Source of the DNA: a virus
Lineage: Duplodnaviria > Heunggongvirae > Uroviricota > Caudoviricetes
Reading direction: 5' to 3' (one strand)
Virus record (IMG/VR): IMGVR_UViG_2778261619_000010
Location: 1-21,065 of that record
DNA length: 21,065 bases
Shown: positions 1 through 21,065 of the stretch, piece after piece
How the letters are laid out: each line of letters starts with the position of its first letter
Position numbering within the stretch: position 1 is the first letter of the stretch
Program-made: the position numbers and the translations under genes
The notes under the pieces: generated by a model
The model's database searches: none
Told to the model about the DNA's origin: nothing
What the model saw: only the letters and a program-made list of their open reading frames with translations

Positions 1-1017
1 ATGAGCAGTGTAAGGACAGACAAGTTCATTAGGTATGGTTTTGCGGTTGTGGCGATAGTTGCCATACTCATTACTACTATCACAACCCCCAATCCCACAC
101 CTTATCAATATATAGTTTACCGAATAGTTCTGGCTCTGGCTGCCGGATGTATTGGTGCAGTTCTGCCTGGTTTCCTTGAAGTAAAATTTAATGGGTGGTT
201 AAGAGCATCTGGCGCAGTGGCGATCTTCGCTATAGTGTTTTTCATAAGCCCAGATTTGCTTCAACAAAATCCTGAATCTGCAAGTAAACCTGTACCGCCT
301 ACTGTGATTGATGCATATGCCGTTAATAGTTCCAATCGCGACAGATACCTCGAATTATTTCGAACAGGACAGTTCGGTCAGCGGGACAAGCTGCGCATCG
401 GTTGTGTTGAGTGGAGTGAATCATCGTGCGTGGCTGCTGGTAATTTTTTGCGATTGTTAAGCGAAGCTGGCTGGGAAATCGATTCTGACGCTGTATTCAG
501 AATGCAACCATCCGTGCCAGTTGAGGGGGTATCGATTGTAAGCCGTGGCGATGATCTGGTCGGTTTGCCAAAAGTACCACCCCACATGGGCCGTTGGAGT
601 CGATCAGACATTAGTTATGAAATTTTGACAGCGGCATTTAAATTGATGGGAGTTCCGGTTTATTTTTCCAGTGACCCGACATTACAACCAGGTACTACCG
701 GAGTGTACTTTGGACCGAAACCGAAACTGGATGCACCAGTCATGCAAAAAGATGAGAATGTGCGACGTGAGCTTCTCCGCTACGTCGGTTTGGGAATGAC
801 TATTCAGCGAGCCTGCTCTCAGCAGCCCGTCGAACTTTGTGGGGGTGAAATCTTTTCCTGGGAAACGTCGGTATCTTCGTTCCTAAGGCAGCAGAGATTC
901 AACTCCGATGCCGTAAACAGATGGCTTGCCTTGCCGCAGGTTAATGCGGCTTCGGCAACTGCAGACATGAAAATAAAGCTAGATTTGTTAATGTCATTTG
1001 TTCTGGGCATCGAGTAA
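1..1017 (+). CDS. membrane-anchored protein of unknown function (about three N-terminal TM helices, then a ~250-aa soluble domain)
   Basis: 338-aa ORF with ATG at position 1, so the true start may lie upstream of the window. Three hydrophobic stretches at roughly residues 12-29, 37-59 and 67-84, followed by a non-hydrophobic C-terminal region with no motif I recognise. Confidence 0.5.
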   Translation: MSSVRTDKFIRYGFAVVAIVAILITTITTPNPTPYQYIVYRIVLALAAGCIGAVLPGFLEVKFNGWLRASGAVAIFAIVFFISPDLLQQNPESASKPVPPTVIDAYAVNSSNRDRYLELFRTGQFGQRDKLRIGCVEWSESSCVAAGNFLRLLSEAGWEIDSDAVFRMQPSVPVEGVSIVSRGDDLVGLPKVPPHMGRWSRSDISYEILTAAFKLMGVPVYFSSDPTLQPGTTGVYFGPKPKLDAPVMQKDENVRRELLRYVGLGMTIQRACSQQPVELCGGEIFSWETSVSSFLRQQRFNSDAVNRWLALPQVNAASATADMKIKLDLLMSFVLGIE

Positions 1018-1660
1018 CTATACCTCTTGCGAGGATGATTGAGCGTCTAATGGACCAGCTTAGCCGTTAGCGCTATTTGTTTACGTAAGCCTGTGGAATC
1101 CAACTAGTGCTTCTACGATGCGTTGTTTGGTGAAAAAAAAGTGTTGAAGCACTGGTTTTAGACAACTAAAGCCACGATTTGCTCATGCGTCGAAAATGTA
1201 GTCGTCTACTGTGTAGCACGGAGGCGATATTCGTACGCTTACACTTGCCGATAGGCCACTGGGGAGTGTTCTTGGCACTAAGCTGCCAGGCCCGAAGGTC
1301 TGCTATGAGCGAGGGGCTGACATTCCTATTGGCATTCGGTGTGAGTTATCGGGGGCGGTCATGCGGCATACTTCCGATACAGGCGTTTCCAGCTCTGCCT
1401 GTTTCAGGGTTATATTAATCTGCTTTAGAATTAATCGTGGCTTTAGCATCTGCACATCGTGCTGGAGAAACCTGAGTGAACTAAATCATATTCCCTTTCT
1501 TCAGCTAATCAATTGATAGTTATGCGGAAAAAGTTACTTTGCTTGTCAATAATCCATTTCACATCCGTTAATCCAATGCTATGCGTCTTCGCATTAATCT
1601 GGAAAGGTAGTAAGTGAAATAAAAACTTAGCCAATGACTAATATCTGAGGATACTTTGTC

Positions 1661-4021
1661 ATGAAAAGTATGCAATCAAAAACGGGCTCTCCACTCGTTC
1701 GAACTGAAGCCGAGCTAGAAAGCCGGCTTACTTCAGCACTAAACATAGCATTTCCTAACATTCCTCGCGAAGATCTTATCGAACAGCGCCATTTTACCGT
1801 TCGGCTAGGCCATGGAACTTACAAAATAGATAGCGCCGCACACTGGAAAAAATACGGGCGAGCGGATGTTTTGATCTTTCATCGGGAGAGACCACTTGCG
1901 GTTATTGAACTGAAACGTGAAGACCTGACACTGACCCATGATGATTATGAACAGGCTCAAAGCTACGCTAACCAGTTAACACCACGTCCGCCTCTCGTTG
2001 TAGTTACGAACGGTAAAGATACGCGCGTTTATGACTCAAGTAATGGACAACAGTGGTCGGGTGGACAGGATGCCTCGGCAGCGGTAAACAAGATGCTCGC
2101 CAATTCTGCAAAGTTGGCGGCGGCTGACATGCGCTGGGCTATTGAAGCCTTGATGGGGCGAGAAACTAATGCTTGGGTGCCAGCTGTGCGAGAAGAAACA
2201 GCCCGGCTGCTGATTGATATAACTGATCAGCCTGGGCATTCAGAACATCCATTTGCCAACAACCTACTTTTTCCTCGCAAAATCACGTCTCTTGTAATTG
2301 AATCTGCTGTGATGGGTACAGCTTTCACTATCATTGAGGGTGATGCACAAAGCGGAAAAAGCAGTTGCCTCCGTGAAATTTCGCTAAAAACGGAAAGTAG
2401 CGATCTTTTGGCTGTCCTGATGTTACGAGGTTCCGGACCAGGACTATTTCAGGCTCTGGCCAATCTTTTTGCAGCTGAATTTGAATGGAATTTAACCTCA
2501 AATGATGCACGTAACTGGTTAAGACGAATGTCTAACTGCACTGAAGGTCCATCGCTTATGCTTGCTATCGACGACGTTGAACCAGGCTCCCAAATGGCTA
2601 CTGATCTTGAGGAACTTGCGGGTATACGTTTTGGCAACAGGCTGGTGGTTGTTCTGACGACCTATCATGCCAACGCGTTACTGAAAAATCCAAACGGACG
2701 AACTCCGTCTGCAATTGGTAGCCGGTCGAAGGTATTTAAAACATCGCCTATGTCCCTAGATGAATTTAAGCTGGCGCAACAGATTCTCTCGGACCAGCGG
2801 ATAGTTTTTCAACAGGGAGCAGAATACGCCGATGACTACCGCTCGCCTTGGGTTCTTCGCACTATTTATGATGACATTGTGCGCAATCATCAATACCAGA
2901 AAACGGATCTTATCGCCTATCTTCCTCCATCACCCGGTATGGAACTTATAGATGCTGCGCAAAAGAGCTATGAGAGTCAGTATGATCTTCTTCGTTATTA
3001 TCGGGTTCTTGCACGCTGCGCACTAGCTGACACAAACTCCCACTCAGTAGAATTAATGTTTGCTAAAGCGAATGGATTTGTCGTGCGGTATGACGCACTT
3101 TCTGACGAAGCTCGTGGTGTAGTGAATGAGTTAAAACATATGGGGGCAGTTCGTATTTTTCGCCTTTCAGGATGGGAAGATGTTGTGGTGCCGACAGTTC
3201 CCGCAGCTTACCTTCTGGAACTGTCGGATGCTGTTTGTGATGAACTGGTTTTACGGGCAGAACAAGACCCTCAAGACGCCGGGGCTTGGCTTGGCGAACG
3301 GCTAGATGCCACTTATCTTGGAGATATGATCGGTGCTCAAGCCATACGCCGTATGGCAGCTAAAGAGAGATATTTCAGCTTTGGAATTATTCAGGGCCTT
3401 CTCAGCATTGAGCCATATAAAGAACCTATAAAAAACGGATTGTTTACTTTAGCCATGCCAGACAACCAACAAGTCAATCTAAAGATTGAGGATGGATTAG
3501 CGTGGATTTCTAAACACGGGGATGATGCAAAGAGTGTTCTGGTGAATTTAGAGGATCAAATCCCAAAGGTCATTTCTAAATCAACCAGTTGGATGATACT
3601 CGGGCAACTAGCGAAACTGCCGTCAGCAGAGGTGGGTGACGATGATCAGCGTATAGACGCCTATATTTTACTGAGCATTGGGCGCTGCCCATTTCCTCTA
3701 ATTCGCACGAATATAGAAGGATTGCCTTACTTTGAGCATAATTTTGGCGATCAGGGTGATGTTCTTTGCCTAGAAAAAGCGTCTATTGAAGTTGCTACTC
3801 AGGCGATGGCTGATTTATTTTCAGCCCCATGGCTCTATGCGGACCAGTGGGTGGATACAGCTATCGCGACCGGTTCTATACATTTACTGCATCGTTTGTT
3901 TGCTGCTTTAAACACAGTGATATTGCGTAGAATACCCGTGCAATCCGACTGGGCTAATGAAGCACTTAATCAACGTGTCTCACCAGCCCTTAAGGAAGCC
4001 ATACGATCATTATCTTCGTGA
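1661..4021 (+). CDS. multidomain protein: N-terminal HsdR_N/Mrr-like PD-(D/E)xK nuclease-like domain, central P-loop NTPase, large uncharacterised C-terminal region; candidate phage-defence protein
   Basis: 786-aa uninterrupted ORF, ATG preceded by GAGGA about 9 nt upstream. Residues 66-88 GRADVLIFHRERPLAVIELKRED give a D69...E83-x-K85 motif, followed by VVVTNGKDTRVYD as in HsdR N-terminal domains. Walker A GDAQSGKS (227-234) and Walker B LMLAIDDVE (299-307). No helicase DEAD/DExH motif seen. Confidence 0.6.
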   Translation: MKSMQSKTGSPLVRTEAELESRLTSALNIAFPNIPREDLIEQRHFTVRLGHGTYKIDSAAHWKKYGRADVLIFHRERPLAVIELKREDLTLTHDDYEQAQSYANQLTPRPPLVVVTNGKDTRVYDSSNGQQWSGGQDASAAVNKMLANSAKLAAADMRWAIEALMGRETNAWVPAVREETARLLIDITDQPGHSEHPFANNLLFPRKITSLVIESAVMGTAFTIIEGDAQSGKSSCLREISLKTESSDLLAVLMLRGSGPGLFQALANLFAAEFEWNLTSNDARNWLRRMSNCTEGPSLMLAIDDVEPGSQMATDLEELAGIRFGNRLVVVLTTYHANALLKNPNGRTPSAIGSRSKVFKTSPMSLDEFKLAQQILSDQRIVFQQGAEYADDYRSPWVLRTIYDDIVRNHQYQKTDLIAYLPPSPGMELIDAAQKSYESQYDLLRYYRVLARCALADTNSHSVELMFAKANGFVVRYDALSDEARGVVNELKHMGAVRIFRLSGWEDVVVPTVPAAYLLELSDAVCDELVLRAEQDPQDAGAWLGERLDATYLGDMIGAQAIRRMAAKERYFSFGIIQGLLSIEPYKEPIKNGLFTLAMPDNQQVNLKIEDGLAWISKHGDDAKSVLVNLEDQIPKVISKSTSWMILGQLAKLPSAEVGDDDQRIDAYILLSIGRCPFPLIRTNIEGLPYFEHNFGDQGDVLCLEKASIEVATQAMADLFSAPWLYADQWVDTAIATGSIHLLHRLFAALNTVILRRIPVQSDWANEALNQRVSPALKEAIRSLSS

Positions 4022-4197
4022 CTAAGCAATGGGATTTTAATACATAACGAGCATCTGTCCACGCAAGTTAACAATTGCCTTGGCTCGATATTTTGGTTTC
4101 TAGTGCATATATGCTGATCTTCTCTTCGTTGATCTGATCTTACCCACCAATAGTGGACACAGGACTAAGTGAGTAAACTCTCAACCAGAGGTGACTC

Positions 4198-4497
4198 ATG
4201 ACAAAACCAGTATCAATCAGCAAGAAGCCCCGTGAACAACATTCGCCTGAATTTCGTAACGAAGCCCTGAAACTCGCTGAACGCATCGGTGTGGCCGCCG
4301 CAGCCCGTGAACTCAGCCTTTATGAATCTCAGCTTTATGCCTGGCGCAGTAAACAGCAGCAACAAATGAGTTCGTCAGAGCGCGAAAGCGAACTGGCCGC
4401 TGAAAATGTCCGCCTTAAACGACAACTGGCGGAGCAGGCTGAGGAACTGGCCATCCTCCAAAAGGCCGCGACATACTTCGCGAATCGCCTGAAATGA
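4198..4497 (+). CDS. insE: IS3 transposase OrfA (HTH and leucine-zipper part)
   Basis: 99-aa product [31 protein letters not shown]...[16 protein letters not shown], near-identical in pattern to IS3 OrfA as I recall it. Confidence 0.85.
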
Positions 4498-5337
4498 AGT
4501 ATGTCTTCATCGAAAATCATCGGGCAGAGTTCTGCATCAAAGCGATGTGTCGTGTACTTCGGGTTGCCCGCAGCGGCTGGTATGTCTGGCTCAGGCGTCG
4601 TCACCAGATGAGCCTTCGCCAACAGTTTCGGCTCACCTGCGATGCCGCTGTCCATAAGGCATTCTTTGAGGCAAAGCAGCGGTACGGTGCTCCCCGCCTT
4701 GCTGACGAACTGCCGGAGTTCAATATTAAAACCATTGCCGCCAGCCTGCGTCGTCAGGGGCTGCGGGCGAAAGTTCAGCCCGGTCAGCTACCGTGCACAT
4801 GGCCTGCCCGTATTGGAGAATCTGCTGGAGCAGGACTTCAGCGCCAGAGGCCCGAACCAGAAGTGGGCGGGTGACATCACGTACTTGCGTACCGATGAGG
4901 GCTGGTTGTATCTCGCAGTAGTCATCGACCTGTGGTCACGCGCCGTCATTGGCTGGTCGATGTCACCGCGAATGACAGCACAACTGGCCTGTGATGCACT
5001 ACAAATGGCGTTGTGGCGGAGAAGACGCCCGGAAAGCGTCATTGTTCATACGGACCGTGGTGGTCAATACTGTTCAGGGGATTATCAGGCGCTGCTGAAG
5101 CGACACAACCTGCGTGGCAGTATGAGTGCGAAAGGCTACTGTTATGACAATGCCTGTGTGGAAAGCTTCTTTCATTCGCTGAAGGTGGAATGTATCCACG
5201 GGGAACGCTTTAGCAGCCGGGAAATAATGCGGGCAACGGTGTTTAATTATATCGAGTGTGATTACAATCGCTGGCGTCGTCACAGTGCCTGTGGCGGTCT
5301 CAGCCCGGAACAATTTGAAAACCATAATCTCGCTTAG
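4494..5337 (+). pseudogene. insF: IS3 transposase OrfB (DDE catalytic domain), split by an internal frameshift
   Basis: OrfB begins in the -1 frame overlapping the orfA stop (ATGA) as expected, but the reading frame changes again near 4760-4780. Two overlapping ORFs (4494-4874 and 4642-5337) together carry OrfB sequence (...[10 protein letters not shown] then [14 protein letters not shown]...DRGGQYCS...). Consistent with a short deletion inside orfB, so this IS copy is probably transposition-defective by itself. Confidence 0.65.
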
Positions 5338-5367
5338 GGCCGTGTCCACATTACGTGGGTAGGTTCA

Positions 5368-5490
5368 ATTTTCCTGATGACCCCATCGACATAGTATTTT
5401 TTCAAAGCAAGAATTGCCTTCTCGCTATGTATTCCTGATAGCTTGATCAGGATATCAAAGTCTCTTTCAGATATATTCCCCTTTGTCATG
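5368..5490 (-). pseudogene. 5' part of a small minus-strand ORF interrupted by the IS3 insertion
   Basis: ATG at 5490 with GGAG 5 nt upstream on the minus strand. 41 codons (MTKGNISERDFDILIKLSGIHSEKAILALKKYYVDGVIRK...) run directly into the IS3 right terminus. An in-frame continuation exists on the other side of IS3 (minus strand, about 3965-4134) if a 3-bp target duplication is assumed. Confidence 0.35.
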
Positions 5491-6058
5491 TGTCACTCCA
5501 TGAATCAAATTTCATAGTAATCAATCTTTCTTTGATCGACTTATAGATAATAAGATCAGAAATGATAAAAAAGTAACGTATATTTCTTCTCGTCATGTCT
5601 ACTTATAAAATTCAAATGAACTAACCTGAACTACTTACACTGGAATATCATTATATTGGAATAATTATAAAACTGAACAAAATGGTCAATGTAATCTGGT
5701 TAATTTATAAATATTTACATTGCGTGATGATATTTAATTCCAGTGTTAAGTAATGTCACATGCCTATTATTGGTTACTACTTTGTAGGTGTTTTGGTTCG
5801 GCGTTAATATCATTGGTCATAATCACCTGTGAAAGTTTATTCTTGAAATGTAATAGGTATATTACTTGCAATTAAAAATGAGAAATTTATTATTATTGTG
5901 TTTTGCAAATATAATAATTAAAAATTTATTATAAATTATGATTAGAATTGACAATATAAAAGAATAATAAAACTCAATATGAAAATAATTATCATCTGGT
6001 TTGATACTTTTGCTGTTGATTACAGGAATAAAGTGTCAGAATAATATTGTTATTGGGT

Positions 6059-6086
6059 AAAAAAAGCCTCCACTATATGTGGAGGC
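6059..6086 (-). terminator. rho-independent terminator-like hairpin (minus strand)
   Basis: Perfect 8-bp stem GCCTCCAC/GTGGAGGC with a 5-nt loop; on the minus strand it is followed by a run of 7 T. Confidence 0.5.
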
Positions 6087-6678
6087 AAACCCTTAGATAG
6101 TTCTATTGAGGCAAGTATGTTATAAATCTGCCTTATCTTTTATAGCATATAAAGATATGTATGCTATATTTTTTTTGAAGAAATTTTTCCAGAAATTACA
6201 GTAATACAAGAAATATTAACTGGTGTGATTTTTGGATGTTTAATAAGTACAGTGTACTTATATTTTTGTAATAAAGATGAACGCCTCCTTTAGATAAACT
6301 GAAAAATATTAAGCATGTCTCATGTGGTTTTCTGAATCAAAACTCTTTTCAGTCTTTGATTTTTTGTTAAAAACAGGTTTATTGCAAGGGTGTTGTTGTG
6401 AAATGTGTTTTGGTGTCGTTGTGATTTTATGGTGATAATGTGAATTTTTATCCTTTCAAGATGGCTCCCTGGACGTTAAATACAGTGGAAATTTATATTA
6501 AGATATAAATATAACTATTGCGTTATTTAAATTATTGTCTATTACAGCTCCAGTTAATAGAGCCTGAAGTAATTTCTTAGTATTTCATCATAAGCGTTTA
6601 TCTATCGTCTCTTTCTAAATTAACCGGTCGTATTACAAGGTGCTGAATCTGATTAAGGAATGATACTTAGGGGATTAT

Positions 6679-6739
6679 GGCTGACTTAATAATTAGATAA
6701 CTGATAAATGACTATCAGGGGGATATCGTTAAGTCAGCC
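6679..6739. repeat. nested inverted repeat immediately downstream of the integrase stop
   Basis: Perfect 11-bp arms GGCTGACTTAA (6679-6689) and TTAAGTCAGCC (6729-6739) enclosing an inner palindrome CTGATA...TATCAG (6701-6718). No adjacent T-run. Confidence 0.55.
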
Positions 6740-6754
6740 TTTAAAATCAAGCGA

Positions 6755-7945
6755 TTATATAGCTGGTGACTCTTTTCGAAGAGCATCAAGGTAGTCAGCG
6801 TACCATTGCATCATTTCTCGTCTTCCTTCAAGGTAACGAGCATGGTTGTATGTACCACGAATGCTGTTTTTGTCCGTATGTGCAAGTTGCATTTCAATCC
6901 ATGCACTATTGAATCCTTGCTCGTGTAGAACAGTACTCATTGTATGACGAAATCCATGCCCGGTAGCTTTTTTGTCATAGCCAATCTTCTTCAAAACCAT
7001 ATTGACGCTTGCATCGCTGATAGGCCTGTTAACATCATTTCTTCCGGCAAAGATGTATCTGTATCTTCCAGTCAGTTCTTTGAGGATTTGCAGAGACTGG
7101 ATTGCCTGATCTGACAGAGGGACGATATGCTCCTTCCTCATTTTCATCCGGGTCGGAGGAACTTCCCATATCTTTTGGGTAAAATCGATCTCACACCATT
7201 CCCCCATACGTAATTCTACTGTTCTCAGCCCTGTGAGCATCAACAATTTTGTAGCTTCACGGGTTACAATACTGCCGGTGTAGTTTTCGAGTTTGTATAA
7301 AAACTCTGGTAGTTCAGGAGGAAGCAGGAAAGGGTAATGTGTTCGCTTATAGCTTTTCATTGCTATAACCAGATCAGAAGCTGGATTGTATCGTGCCCGA
7401 CCTGTAACAATGGCATACCGAAACACTTCACCACATCGTTGGCGAACTTTATTAGCTAGCTCGCAGGCTCCTCGGCTTTCGATACGCTGAAGAACTGCGA
7501 GAAGTTCAAGAGGTTCGATTTCACTAATGGGTCTGTTTCCAATGTAGGGAAACACATTATTTTTGAATGCTCTGTCGACATAATCAGCGTAGCTGGCAGA
7601 CCAGCCTGAAACTTTTGCGTTGTACCACTCGGTGGCGATTGCGGCAAAAGTTCTTCCTTCGGAAAGGTTTTTCTCAAGATTTTCAGCTTTCTTGACTTCA
7701 CCGGGATCTTTACCATCGGCATGTATTTTCTTGGCTTCATCCCGACGTTTGCGAGCTTCAGCCAATGTAATAGTTGGATAGGTGCCAAATGATAGTTTCT
7801 TTTCCTTCCCCGCATAGTGGTACTTCATTCGCCAGTACTTTGAGCCGTTAGGATTGACCTGAAGGTAGAGCCCACCACCATCGGCAATCTTATAAATTTT
7901 ATCTTTGGGTTTGGCTGTTTCAACTTGTCGAGCTGTCAGTGGCAT
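6755..7945 (-). CDS. int: P4-family (IntS/CP4-57-like) tyrosine integrase
   Basis: N-terminus MPLTARQVETAKPKDKIYKIADGGGLYLQVNPNGSKYWRMKY... is typical of P4-type integrases. C-terminal HGFRHT and IRGTYNHARYLEGRREMMQW supply the HxxR and catalytic Tyr. The ORF-track start at 7972 is a TTG; the ATG at 7945 is the more likely start. Confidence 0.9.
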   Translation of the reverse strand: MPLTARQVETAKPKDKIYKIADGGGLYLQVNPNGSKYWRMKYHYAGKEKKLSFGTYPTITLAEARKRRDEAKKIHADGKDPGEVKKAENLEKNLSEGRTFAAIATEWYNAKVSGWSASYADYVDRAFKNNVFPYIGNRPISEIEPLELLAVLQRIESRGACELANKVRQRCGEVFRYAIVTGRARYNPASDLVIAMKSYKRTHYPFLLPPELPEFLYKLENYTGSIVTREATKLLMLTGLRTVELRMGEWCEIDFTQKIWEVPPTRMKMRKEHIVPLSDQAIQSLQILKELTGRYRYIFAGRNDVNRPISDASVNMVLKKIGYDKKATGHGFRHTMSTVLHEQGFNSAWIEMQLAHTDKNSIRGTYNHARYLEGRREMMQWYADYLDALRKESPAI

Positions 7946-8120
7946 CTGGGGGCCTCGCAATAGATTGACCAAGATGTGCCCCTAAATAGGCCCCCAAATG
8001 TGACTTGATTTACGTTCCCCTGAGGAGAATTAAGGCGACTATTTGAGTAACATAAGTAAGGGTATGTGCTGATTATAAAGGCTTTTTGTGGGGTATGGTA
8101 GATTTCAGGAGAGGTGTGCA

Positions 8121-8160
8121 TGGTGTCCGAATAGGGAATCGAACCTGCAAATCAGGCAAG
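8121..8160 (-). other. tRNA 3'-end-like sequence (candidate att core or remnant), not a functional tRNA
   Basis: Minus strand reads ...TTGCAGGTTCGATTCCCTATTCGGACACCA: a T-loop motif GGTTCGATTCC and a terminal CCA resembling the 3' end of tRNA-Arg/Thr genes as I recall them, but the T-stem cannot pair and no D or anticodon arm lies upstream. Confidence 0.4.
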
Positions 8161-8181
8161 AAAAAACCGCCATCAGGCGGC
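8161..8181 (-). terminator. rho-independent terminator-like hairpin (minus strand) between early-left genes and att/int
   Basis: Minus strand CCGCC-TGAT-GGCGG followed by TTTTTT. Confidence 0.45.
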
Positions 8182-8352
8182 TTGGTGTTCTTTCAGTTCT
8201 TCAATTCGAATATTGGTTACTTCTGCATGTGCTATCTGCGCCCATATCATCCAGTGGTTATAGCAGTCGTTGATGTCCTCTGCTTCGATAACCCTGTTGA
8301 ATGGTTCTCCATTCCATTCACCTGTGACTCGGAAGTGCATTTATCATCTCCA

Positions 8353-8377
8353 TAAAACAAAACTCGCCGTAGCGAGT
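8353..8377 (-). terminator. terminator-like hairpin downstream of the 181-aa early gene (minus strand)
   Basis: Minus strand ACTCGC-TACG-GCGAGT followed by TTTTGTTTTA. Confidence 0.4.
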
Positions 8378-8440
8378 TCAGATAAAAGAAATCCCCGCGA
8401 ATGCGAGGATTGTTATTCACCTTTGACGGCAAGTTGCAGG

Positions 8441-19068: not shown

Positions 19069-21065
19069 TGGCTAAAGCATGGAAAGATGTTATCGCCTCT
19101 CCACAGTATCAGGCGTTAGCACCAGAACAAAAAGCGCAAGCTCAGGAGCAATACTTCAATGAAGTCGTGGCCCCGCAAGCCGGAGAAAATGCAGAGCAGG
19201 CTAAGCAAGCTTTCTATGCTGCCTATCCATTGCCATCTGTACAGCCAGTGGAGACACAGCAACCAGTAGCACAGCAACAACCACAGCAAAGTGGATTTAT
19301 GTCTGATCTTGGCGAAGCAGTAAAAGAGACTGGTCGCGGACTGGTGCAGGCTGGCGTGAACGTGGCAAATATACCTGCATCAGTTGCCGATGCTGTAACA
19401 AGCGCGGCGGCTTGGGCTGGCGGTAAACTCGGCATTGGCGATGGTACATATCAACCAGCGCCACGAGTAACAACGCAGGGATTAGAGCAGGACTTTGGCC
19501 TTCAGCAAGGCGCGCTGACTCCACAAACGACAGAGGGAAGGGTATTTGCTGAAGCATTGCCTTACCTCACTCCTGCTGGCGTTGAGAGAGCGGCGGTACA
19601 GGCACCAACACTTGCTGGTCGAATTGCTCAGGGGGCAACTCGCCTTCTAGCAGAAAACGCAGTTGGATCACTTGCTGCAAATAGTGCGAAAGATGATGCG
19701 GAAGCACTCGCCACCGATTTAGGCGTTGGTGTACTTGCTGGCGGTGCTATTAACGCTGCTGGACGTGGATTAGGTGCTGCTTATCGTGGCGTTCGTGGTG
19801 CTATCGCGCCAGAAGCGCAGCAGGCTATCAGATTTGCAGAGCGTGAAGGAGTTCCTCTGCACACCACAGACCTGTTACAACCAACTTCCCGCGTCGGAAA
19901 AATGGCGCAGACTACAGCAGAAAATATCCCCCTGGCTGGCACAAGCGGAATGAGAGCAACGCAACAGGAAGCGAGAAGCCAGTTGGTGCAGAGATTTGCT
20001 GATAAATTCGGTGAGTATGATCCAGCTGTTGTTATTGACAGCCTTAAAGCGAAAACATCAGGAATTCGTCGTGCCGCCGGTAATCGACTGGAGCAGGTTC
20101 AGAATGCTATGGCTGGAGTAAACATTCAGCCTGCGCGAGCAATTCAGCAGATTGATACAGAAATATCTAACCTGCAGAAGCTTGGTAAGGTTGCTGATAA
20201 CGAGACTATTTCAAAACTTCAGTCCTATCGTGATGAGCTTGTTCGCAATGCTAGTCCTGATGGTCCGGTAAATCTGGATTTGAAGCAATTAAGCGATCTG
20301 CGCAGCCAGTTCAGAATGGACGTGAAGGGGGAACGACCAGTGTTACCAAACCGTTCCGATGCTGCCATTCAGCGCGTTTACAAGGCGATGACAGACGATA
20401 TCAATGGTGCCATTGGTCAGAATCTTGGCAACGATACTCTCCGTAAATATCAGCAGGCCAATGCCGTCTACGCTGACGAAGCGGCGAAACTAAAGAATAC
20501 CAGGATGAAGAATGTTCTCATGAAAGGCGACCTGACGCCGGAAGTTGTCAACAACATGCTATTCAGCAAGAACAAATCGGAAATTAAGACGCTGTATAAC
20601 TCAGTTGGTCGTGTTGGTAGGGCGCAAATGCGCAATGGCATCATTGGAAAGGCGATGGAGAAATCTGGCGGATCCCCTGACCAGTTCCTTCGGCAGCTTA
20701 ACATCCTGCAAAACCAGACTGGCATCACATTTAAGGGGCAGGACGCTGCTTATCTGAAAGGATTAAAAAACTACCTGCAATCCACGCAGCAGGCTGCAAA
20801 AGCGGCAGTAACAACACCTACAGGGCAGCAAACTATCCCGTTCATTATCGGGTATGGGACGGCAATGAACCCGGCGACAACTGGCGCAGCGGTAAGCTAC
20901 GGACTTCTTACTCGCGCCTATGAGAGCGAGCCATTCAGAAATGCAATGCTCCGAATGGCAAACACCCCACGCGGATCAACAGCGTTTGAGAAAGCCATGC
21001 AGCAGGCGCAAAAGGCCATTAACGCCCTGACGCAGGGGGCTAAGTCTGATGCGTTGTCAGAATAG
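19068..21065 (+). CDS. ejection protein, P22 gp16-like
   Basis: 665 aa; start overlaps the previous stop (TAATG); Ala/Gln/Gly-rich; last gene of the ejection module, ending at the window edge with a TAG stop. Confidence 0.7.
   Translation: MAKAWKDVIASPQYQALAPEQKAQAQEQYFNEVVAPQAGENAEQAKQAFYAAYPLPSVQPVETQQPVAQQQPQQSGFMSDLGEAVKETGRGLVQAGVNVANIPASVADAVTSAAAWAGGKLGIGDGTYQPAPRVTTQGLEQDFGLQQGALTPQTTEGRVFAEALPYLTPAGVERAAVQAPTLAGRIAQGATRLLAENAVGSLAANSAKDDAEALATDLGVGVLAGGAINAAGRGLGAAYRGVRGAIAPEAQQAIRFAEREGVPLHTTDLLQPTSRVGKMAQTTAENIPLAGTSGMRATQQEARSQLVQRFADKFGEYDPAVVIDSLKAKTSGIRRAAGNRLEQVQNAMAGVNIQPARAIQQIDTEISNLQKLGKVADNETISKLQSYRDELVRNASPDGPVNLDLKQLSDLRSQFRMDVKGERPVLPNRSDAAIQRVYKAMTDDINGAIGQNLGNDTLRKYQQANAVYADEAAKLKNTRMKNVLMKGDLTPEVVNNMLFSKNKSEIKTLYNSVGRVGRAQMRNGIIGKAMEKSGGSPDQFLRQLNILQNQTGITFKGQDAAYLKGLKNYLQSTQQAAKAAVTTPTGQQTIPFIIGYGTAMNPATTGAAVSYGLLTRAYESEPFRNAMLRMANTPRGSTAFEKAMQQAQKAINALTQGAKSDALSE

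Follow-up and report, generated by a model that had tools for sequence, protein, structure and literature searches.

The DNA analyzed (referred to as the window; 21,065 nt) is Escherichia coli DNA from contig NLTW01000048.1 of the draft assembly GCA_002233105.1. It comprises the left part of a defective P22-like (Lederbergvirus) prophage and the integrase end of a separate island. The features on both sides of the contact between these elements are as follows, with positions in window coordinates.

1..5489, no strand assigned: island cargo, comprising a hypothetical gene, a gene for a 786-aa HsdR_N-domain protein, a frameshifted IS3 and a PapB/FocB-like regulator gene
6755..7945, minus strand: int2, an intact gene for a 396-aa tyrosine integrase of P4/IntS-type architecture, with its ATG at 7945
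7946..8119, minus strand: region upstream of int2 (174 bp), the attL arm of the island and int2 promoter region
8120..8128, minus strand: remnant of the att core, 9 nt GGACACCAT, consisting of the last 8 nt of argW plus 1 nt as judged from the O26 alignment
8129..8134, minus strand: CTATTC, all that is left of the 5' leader of torI/xis, immediately adjoining the 294-bp deletion
8135..8150, minus strand: 16-nt box TTGCAGGTTCGATTCC, a fixed part of the phage TorI module and not att core
8164..8183, minus strand, with a T run to ~8158: intrinsic-terminator-like hairpin that ends the early-left operon
8173..8340, minus strand: conserved 55-aa early-left ORF, the last gene before the terminator
8441..8986, minus strand: DUF551 early-left gene of the defective P22-like prophage
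11009..11725, minus strand: gene for a cI/c2-type repressor (HTH plus S24 peptidase) of the prophage
11774..13653, plus strand: truncated genes for the terminase large subunit and the P22 coat protein, both with partial profile matches

The contig stops ~190 nt past the end of the window, and the argW-intS end of the prophage is therefore visible in close relatives only. The closest complete genome is that of strain E10, which is 99.98 to 100% identical across the shared segments.

Between the int2 start codon (7945, minus strand) and the early-left terminator (8164 to 8183, minus strand) lies a fragment that resembles the 3' end of a tRNA gene. Read on the minus strand from 8150 to 8121, it corresponds to TTGCAGGTTCGATTCC-CTATTC-GGACACCA; the final 30 nt of argW, the gene for tRNA-Arg(CCU), are TTGCAGGTTCGATTCC-TGCAGG-GGACACCA (sequence from strain E10). 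The two are thus identical in register at 24 of 30 positions, namely, 16 nt at 8135 to 8150 and 8 nt at 8121 to 8128, with none of the 6 nt at 8129 to 8134 matching. As these six positions replace the 3' half of the T stem, the fragment cannot form a T arm. In accordance, ARAGORN returned neither a tRNA nor a tmRNA (0 and 0) for the 21,065-nt window, and Rfam detected no family at the gathering score in the whole window and no tRNA at 7900 to 8500 even at an E value of ≤10; an intact T arm with the acceptor 3' strand, or a cloverleaf, is absent from the fragment. The chance expectation for the 16-mer TTGCAGGTTCGATTCC is 0.01 per window, as estimated from shuffled sequences. An earlier, sequence-only reading of this DNA had described a tRNA 3'-end-like sequence at 8121 to 8160 on the minus strand that is unable to fold as a tRNA, in a stretch devoid of a complete tRNA gene and situated between the integrase start and the end of the early-left operon, beside a terminator. 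Our data bear out this description for 8121 to 8150, whereas no tRNA likeness was found at 8151 to 8160; the absence of a folding or complete tRNA, the location, and the adjacency of the integrase to the early-left operon with only an att-like fragment in between all stand.

The complete E10 genome has the same junction with an additional C, and the junction is also found in the source contig of the window, which is present in 6 samples; it is therefore not an assembly artefact. The exact junction had no match among the species-representative genomes. To our knowledge, the hybrid T stem/acceptor sequence CCCTA / TTCGGAC fits no E. coli tRNA 3' end. Another E. coli tRNA was considered as the source of the fragment and was dropped once the alignment with the O26 junction had revealed a chimera created by deletion. 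According to this alignment, the two argW-matching blocks of the fragment come from different sources.

The integrase encoded by int2 contains the Pfam domains Arm-DNA-bind_3, Phage_int_M, and Phage_integrase and shares 48% identity with IntS. Its best match among 50,697 phage records reached 49% identity, and none of these records contained an integrase above that value. The 174 bp upstream of int2 (7946 to 8119) are 53% identical to the IntS arm of phage N7, compared with 52% for shuffled controls, and 100% identical to the argW-int2 interval of genomes that contain the island only. As query for the island-alone state we used a synthetic junction composed of window positions 7600 to 8119, an intact argW and the yfdC side, and this construct was found in real genomes at 100% identity and coverage (in the 30 matches listed). 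In 210 of 5,426 complete genomes, int2 is joined to an intact argW with the same upstream 174 bp, and in these genomes it is located at the head of a ~40-kb island. This is illustrated by strain 2013C-4187, which has no prophage at this site and in which the order is yfdC - argW - int2 - PapB - IS3 - HsdR_N - ... - Ag43. At the far end of the island in E10, ~40 kb away and adjoining csc/dsdA, there is a 19-nt direct copy of the argW 3' end. Taken with the island-alone state, this far-end copy identifies int2 and its 174 bp as the attL side of the argW island. Judged from these comparisons, int2 is part of the argW genomic island on its left and not of the prophage.

Several further observations were made on the island. 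The int2 gene is intact in the window and in E10; the annotations of 97-3250 and 06_3235, both of which carry the tandem arrangement described below, and of strain 2013C-4187, which has the island only, list it as a pseudogene interrupted by an internal stop. Searches of PADLOC and NCBIfam with the two large island proteins yielded no more than weak matches of the HsdR_N type. At the far end of the island in E10 (28120 to 28190 of the extracted segment), the flank beyond the 19-nt argW copy, GGGGTGAAGGTAGATTTCGTTTGAAGGGTATC, is similar to the int2 arm in its core-proximal part, GGGGTATGGTAGATTTCAGGAGAGGTGTGCA. This likeness suggests that a relic of another int2-type element may lie beside the csc sucrose genes and a truncated dsdX. 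Downstream of int2, between this gene and that for the 51-aa PapB/FocB-like regulator, a stretch of 1.27 kb (5490 to 6754) has a G+C content of 28%, compared with 47% for the window, and contains no ORF of at least 50 aa; the gap is kept in all relatives inspected.

On the other side of the fragment, the early-left terminator is common to lambda and HK022, and it is all that lambda has in common with the junction side of phages that carry a TorI module. In E10, N7, and Kapi1, the 55-aa ORF that precedes the terminator carries the annotation "hypothetical protein", and it had no family match in Pfam and NCBIfam. In the region 7800 to 8600, 5 terminator-like sites were found, against 0.6 expected. 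Two additional terminator-like hairpins are located on the minus strand between the DUF551 gene and the 55-aa ORF (8360 to 8379 and 8390 to 8411), and O26 strains harbor at this site (8360 to 8411) an extra 300-nt gene flanked by repeated CATCTCCATAAAACA. The prophage is defective because of internal deletions (11774 to 13653). The terminase match covers only the C terminus of the profile and the coat match profile positions 124 to 423, so that the cI-type repressor gene is immediately followed by the coding sequences of a C-terminal terminase fragment and of a coat protein without residues 1 to ~123. Genes for replication, lysis, the portal, and the scaffold are lacking. The prophage of E10 has a different, larger set of deletions.

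The recombination module to which this side belongs has been described as the IntS-TorI module (PMC2951348 and PMC3509656), with the 16-nt att core CTGCAGGGGACACCAT (PMC2951348). In phages N7, Kapi1, and Sf6 and in KplE1/CPS-53 of strain K-12, the order is early-left terminator, short leader, torI/xis, a P arm of ~70 bp, the 16-nt core CTGCAGGGGACACCAT, the P' arm and intS. A true attP of this phage family thus contains the 16-nt core and the xis/torI gene. In E10 and 06_3235, the order from the tRNA side is yfdC - argW - intS - O-antigen-modification genes (gtr or acyltransferase) - tailspike - P22-type structural genes - early-left - [torI - core] - int2 - PapB/FocB-like - IS3 - HsdR_N - IS66 - Ag43, with [torI - core] absent from E10, which shares the 294-bp loss of the window. 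The prophage's own intS is consequently located in these relatives at the far prophage end, adjoining argW.

Both halves of the junction were found in 65 complete genomes, mostly of the O26 type, and in these genomes a P22-like prophage with the KplE1/HK620/Sf6 IntS-TorI module lies between argW and the island. In all those inspected save E10, the junction consists of int2, the 16-nt core, torI, and the terminator; among the ten matches listed it spans 455 bp, that is, 161 plus 294 bp. The segment from core to box in the O26 genomes is 96 to 97% identical to the attP or attR of N7, Kapi1, Sf6, and KplE1, whereas the int2 arm resembles the IntS arm only at the level of shuffled sequences, so that the two sides of the junction are unrelated recombination modules. 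For this reason the intact junction is a composite of prophage attR and island attL. Such a composite is what would be expected to arise when a phage integrates into a tRNA gene that already holds an island.

Compared with O26 strain 97-3250, the window lacks exactly 294 bases, between ATGGTG[TCC and TATC]TCCGAATAGGG. In the O26 alignment, these bases correspond to 7 nt of the core, the P arm, and torI. TCC occurs at both break points, as a deletion microhomology, and is retained at 8126 to 8128. Among complete genomes, the loss was found in E10 only, in addition to the window. A full 16-nt core had no match in the window when up to 3 mismatches were allowed, and the 9-nt remnant is followed directly by CTATTC, the leader leftover; intact modules read ...GATTCCCTATTCGGAGATAGCACTCATG(torI). 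Through the deletion, conserved phage sequence from upstream of torI now abuts 8 nt that truly derive from the 3' end of argW, and the product looks like the 30-nt end of a tRNA gene because the two blocks happen to be spaced as in the real tRNA. It is the conserved torI-upstream phage sequence, not the att core, that accounts for two thirds of this resemblance. Comparison between genomes establishes, at the level of sequence, the tandem architecture of the relatives, the island-alone state, the intact junction and the exact end points of the deletion.

At the junction (8126 to 8129; ~20227 to 20231 of the extracted E10 segment), E10 reads TCCC where the window reads TCC. This extra C, one of only two differences across 9.8 kb, is possibly a homopolymer slip, a sequencing error, or the trace of a separate event; the register is hence not conserved. 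At the attR of strain UTI89, too, the C run of the core has lost one base, and the instability of this run in UTI89 and E10 points to a slippage-prone sequence.

Considering these data, we assign a probability of about 0.9 to the reading that the window contains part of a tandem array at argW and that the tRNA-like fragment is the scar of a 294-bp deletion, a chimeric and dead attR/attL junction rather than an attP. The ~40-kb island with int2 would have been resident first, directly downstream of argW. A P22-like (Lederbergvirus) phage with an IntS-TorI module would then have integrated into the same tRNA gene and displaced the island, which would have formed the composite junction early-left - terminator - torI(xis) - P arm - 16-nt core - int2 arm - int2. 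We infer this order of the two integrations, first the island and then the phage. A subsequent deletion of 294 bp through the TCC microhomology, by illegitimate recombination or replication slippage, would have eliminated torI and the P arm together with 7 nt of the core and fused the last 8 nt of argW to the torI-upstream sequence that carries 16 nt of T-arm identity.

An alternative retains the tandem array and ascribes the 294-bp loss to an integrase that aberrantly recombined the core with a pseudo-site close to the box. P4-type integrases recognise the T-arm kind of tRNA sequence, and one break lies inside the att core and the other 6 nt from the sequence identical to the argW T arm. The surroundings of the break points, however, have only TCC in common, the right break shows no sign of inverted core-type sites, and the core C run is independently unstable, with a 1-nt loss in UTI89 and a 1-nt difference in E10, which points to slippage. 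We consider an integrase error very unlikely.

A different explanation is that the junction never possessed torI or a full core and arose from an xis-less P22-like phage at a secondary site or in one illegitimate event. The GenBank record of phage CUS-3 ends at the box and lacks an xis, which could suggest that xis-less relatives exist, and the phage side of the window differs from the O26 prophage at a few bases. Nevertheless, the CUS-3-type prophage of UTI89 has torI and a core with a 1-nt deletion past the end of that record, and the order box - torI - core was present in all 80 TorI-module loci surveyed and all free phages inspected. Furthermore, 9 nt of the true core are kept exactly beside the int2 arm, as a deletion after integration predicts. 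Very little credence can be given to an origin without torI.

The sequence-only reading itself, in which int2, the fragment, and the early-left operon form a single phage module in an attP-like, uninterrupted configuration (episomal, in tandem copies, or at a secondary site), has next to no probability. In its favor, int2 does adjoin the early-left operon with the tRNA-like fragment and the terminator in between, in the gene order of the free phages N7, Sf6, and Kapi1. However, int2 is not the integrase of the phage: to its left is island DNA (AT-rich spacer, PapB, IS3, HsdR_N) where N7 and Sf6 have tailspike and O-antigen-modification genes, it occurs with its arm phage-free beside intact argW in the 210 genomes, no phage-record integrase is closer to it than 49%, the core is cut to 9 nt, xis (torI) is absent, and intS is found at the other prophage end in relatives. 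In accordance, the window has none of the four features that define an IntS-TorI attP. Instead of a complete 16-nt core there are the 9 nt GGACACCAT at 8120 to 8128; torI/xis/hkaC and the P arm, present between terminator and core in O26, N7, Kapi1, Sf6, and K-12, are missing; the integrase is not of the IntS type with its own P' arm (48% identity, and 53%, i.e., the shuffle level, for the arm); and beyond it island genes occupy the place of the late and conversion genes (tailspike, gtr/oac). Two of the options that had been named alongside the attP claim came close, namely, tandem elements and a degenerate att remnant, with the qualification that the elements are a prophage and an island and that the core is truncated. 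The search for a cognate intact tRNA gene and direct repeats that had been recommended with it was run in the relatives and located both an intact argW and copies of the core.

The features of a tandem junction, by contrast with those of an attP, are present. The distal element occurs alone at the intact tRNA gene in 210 genomes, and the proximal integrase adjoins an intact tRNA gene, as seen through the relatives E10 and 06_3235 only. Direct repeats are provided by the cores at argW and at the junction in 06_3235 and by the 19-nt far-end copy in E10, the junction copy of the window being truncated. We thus consider the locus to be a known kind of structure: tandem integrative elements at a tRNA gene, in a region known to be variable and with a lineage-specific scar. 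The variability of the argW-dsdCXA region is credited to Moritz & Welch 2006, as cited in PMC7545054. As in tRNA tandem arrays of this region, three argW 3'-end copies in the same orientation bound the prophage and the island, and the integrase of each element is located at its tRNA-proximal repeat; the window differs in that half of the middle repeat has been deleted along with the phage excisionase gene.

A similar comparison was made for the KplE1 (CPS-53)/HK620/Sf6 module at argW. The window has the same terminator and the same torI-upstream box, and its relatives also contain the same torI, P arm, and core CTGCAGGGGACACCAT at 96 to 97% identity. The attR of this module in K-12 includes pawZ, an annotated 15-nt argW remnant. 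In contrast to this module, the window has lost torI and the P arm as well as 7 nt of the core, and the adjacent integrase is not IntS; in the prophage state of the KplE1/HK620/Sf6 type, intS and torI are at opposite prophage ends. Phage CUS-3 (CP000711) has the same 16-nt TTGCAGGTTCGATTCC in the same place after the early-left terminator, where it is annotated as att core. In CUS-3-type lysogens, torI and the core lie between the box and dsdC, whereas the box of the window continues directly into what is left of the core.

If the deletion scar has been interpreted correctly, it should be recombinationally dead, and neither the prophage nor the island would be able to excise here: the prophage because its attR core, P arm, and excisionase are lost, the island because its attL core is lost. 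The outer sites would be mismatched, with argW carrying the IntS arm and the far end of the island an int2-type arm. The array would consequently be fixed in place, with prophage and island fused. In addition, read-through from the early-left operon is predicted to run directly into the int2 leader, and the putative promoter pI, annotated in Sf6, would likewise feed this leader; in the window, its putative -35 and -10 elements are at 8159 to 8154 and 8136 to 8131, respectively.

For annotation, the lesson is that a tRNA-like fragment beside an integrase need not be the att site of the neighboring phage. Here, the fragment marks the boundary between two elements, which programs that call the limits of prophages and islands would wrongly merge, and in the CUS-3 GenBank record the 16-nt box has already led to a wrong att annotation. 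The locus also illustrates that the loss of a short segment can lock a prophage to an island when the att site they share and the excisionase gene are destroyed by it. The knowledge of tRNA-targeted integration is left unchanged by this scar, and the one remaining point with some novelty is the T-arm-like box that precedes torI.

The 16 nt of this box are identical to the argW T arm from the 5' half of the stem through the loop and up to the second base of the 3' stem half. It is found 23 nt upstream of torI/xis in KplE1 of K-12, Sf6, HK633, N7, Kapi1, UTI89, and O26, and it is exact in 79 of the 80 TorI-module loci retrieved from IMG/VR, one base being changed in the remaining locus. The box region is annotated as the putative promoter pI in the Sf6 record and as attL/attR core in the CUS-3 record (CP000711), which ends there. 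In UTI89, a CUS-3-type lysogen, torI and the true core follow past the end of that record, before dsdC (3690 to 4016 of the extracted segment), and the core carries a 1-nt deletion, ATGGTGTCC-CTGCAG. The CUS-3 record thus seems to stop short of the excisionase gene and of the true attR, and the presence of torI and the 1-nt-deleted core in UTI89 ruled out that the box is the att core of CUS-3-type phages. The Erwinia phage phiEt88 has a 13-nt version, AGGTTCGATTCCC, in the same place upstream of a distant xis. Klebsiella phage Chronis and Erwinia phage Eho49, the TorI proteins of which are 82 to 86% identical, lack the box, as do six phiEt88-like xis loci, and the idea of a family-wide conserved element was rejected on these grounds. 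The simple model of a formerly contiguous argW block that was split was contradicted by phiEt88, since its box carries its own 3' stem half. No occurrence of the box sequence was found in the literature searched.

We regard it as doubtful that the identity between the box and the argW T arm is more than accidental, reflecting either an older attP fossil or a functional site. As a fossil, the box could derive from an ancestral attP with a contiguous tRNA block, in which the T arm was joined to the acceptor end. As a functional site, it could be a putative core-type binding site for the integrase or a leader element that controls the expression of the excisionase. Were the identity non-accidental, the deletion in the window would have nearly restored the ancestral contiguous block and would illustrate one route by which integrase modules may be swapped inside tandem arrays.
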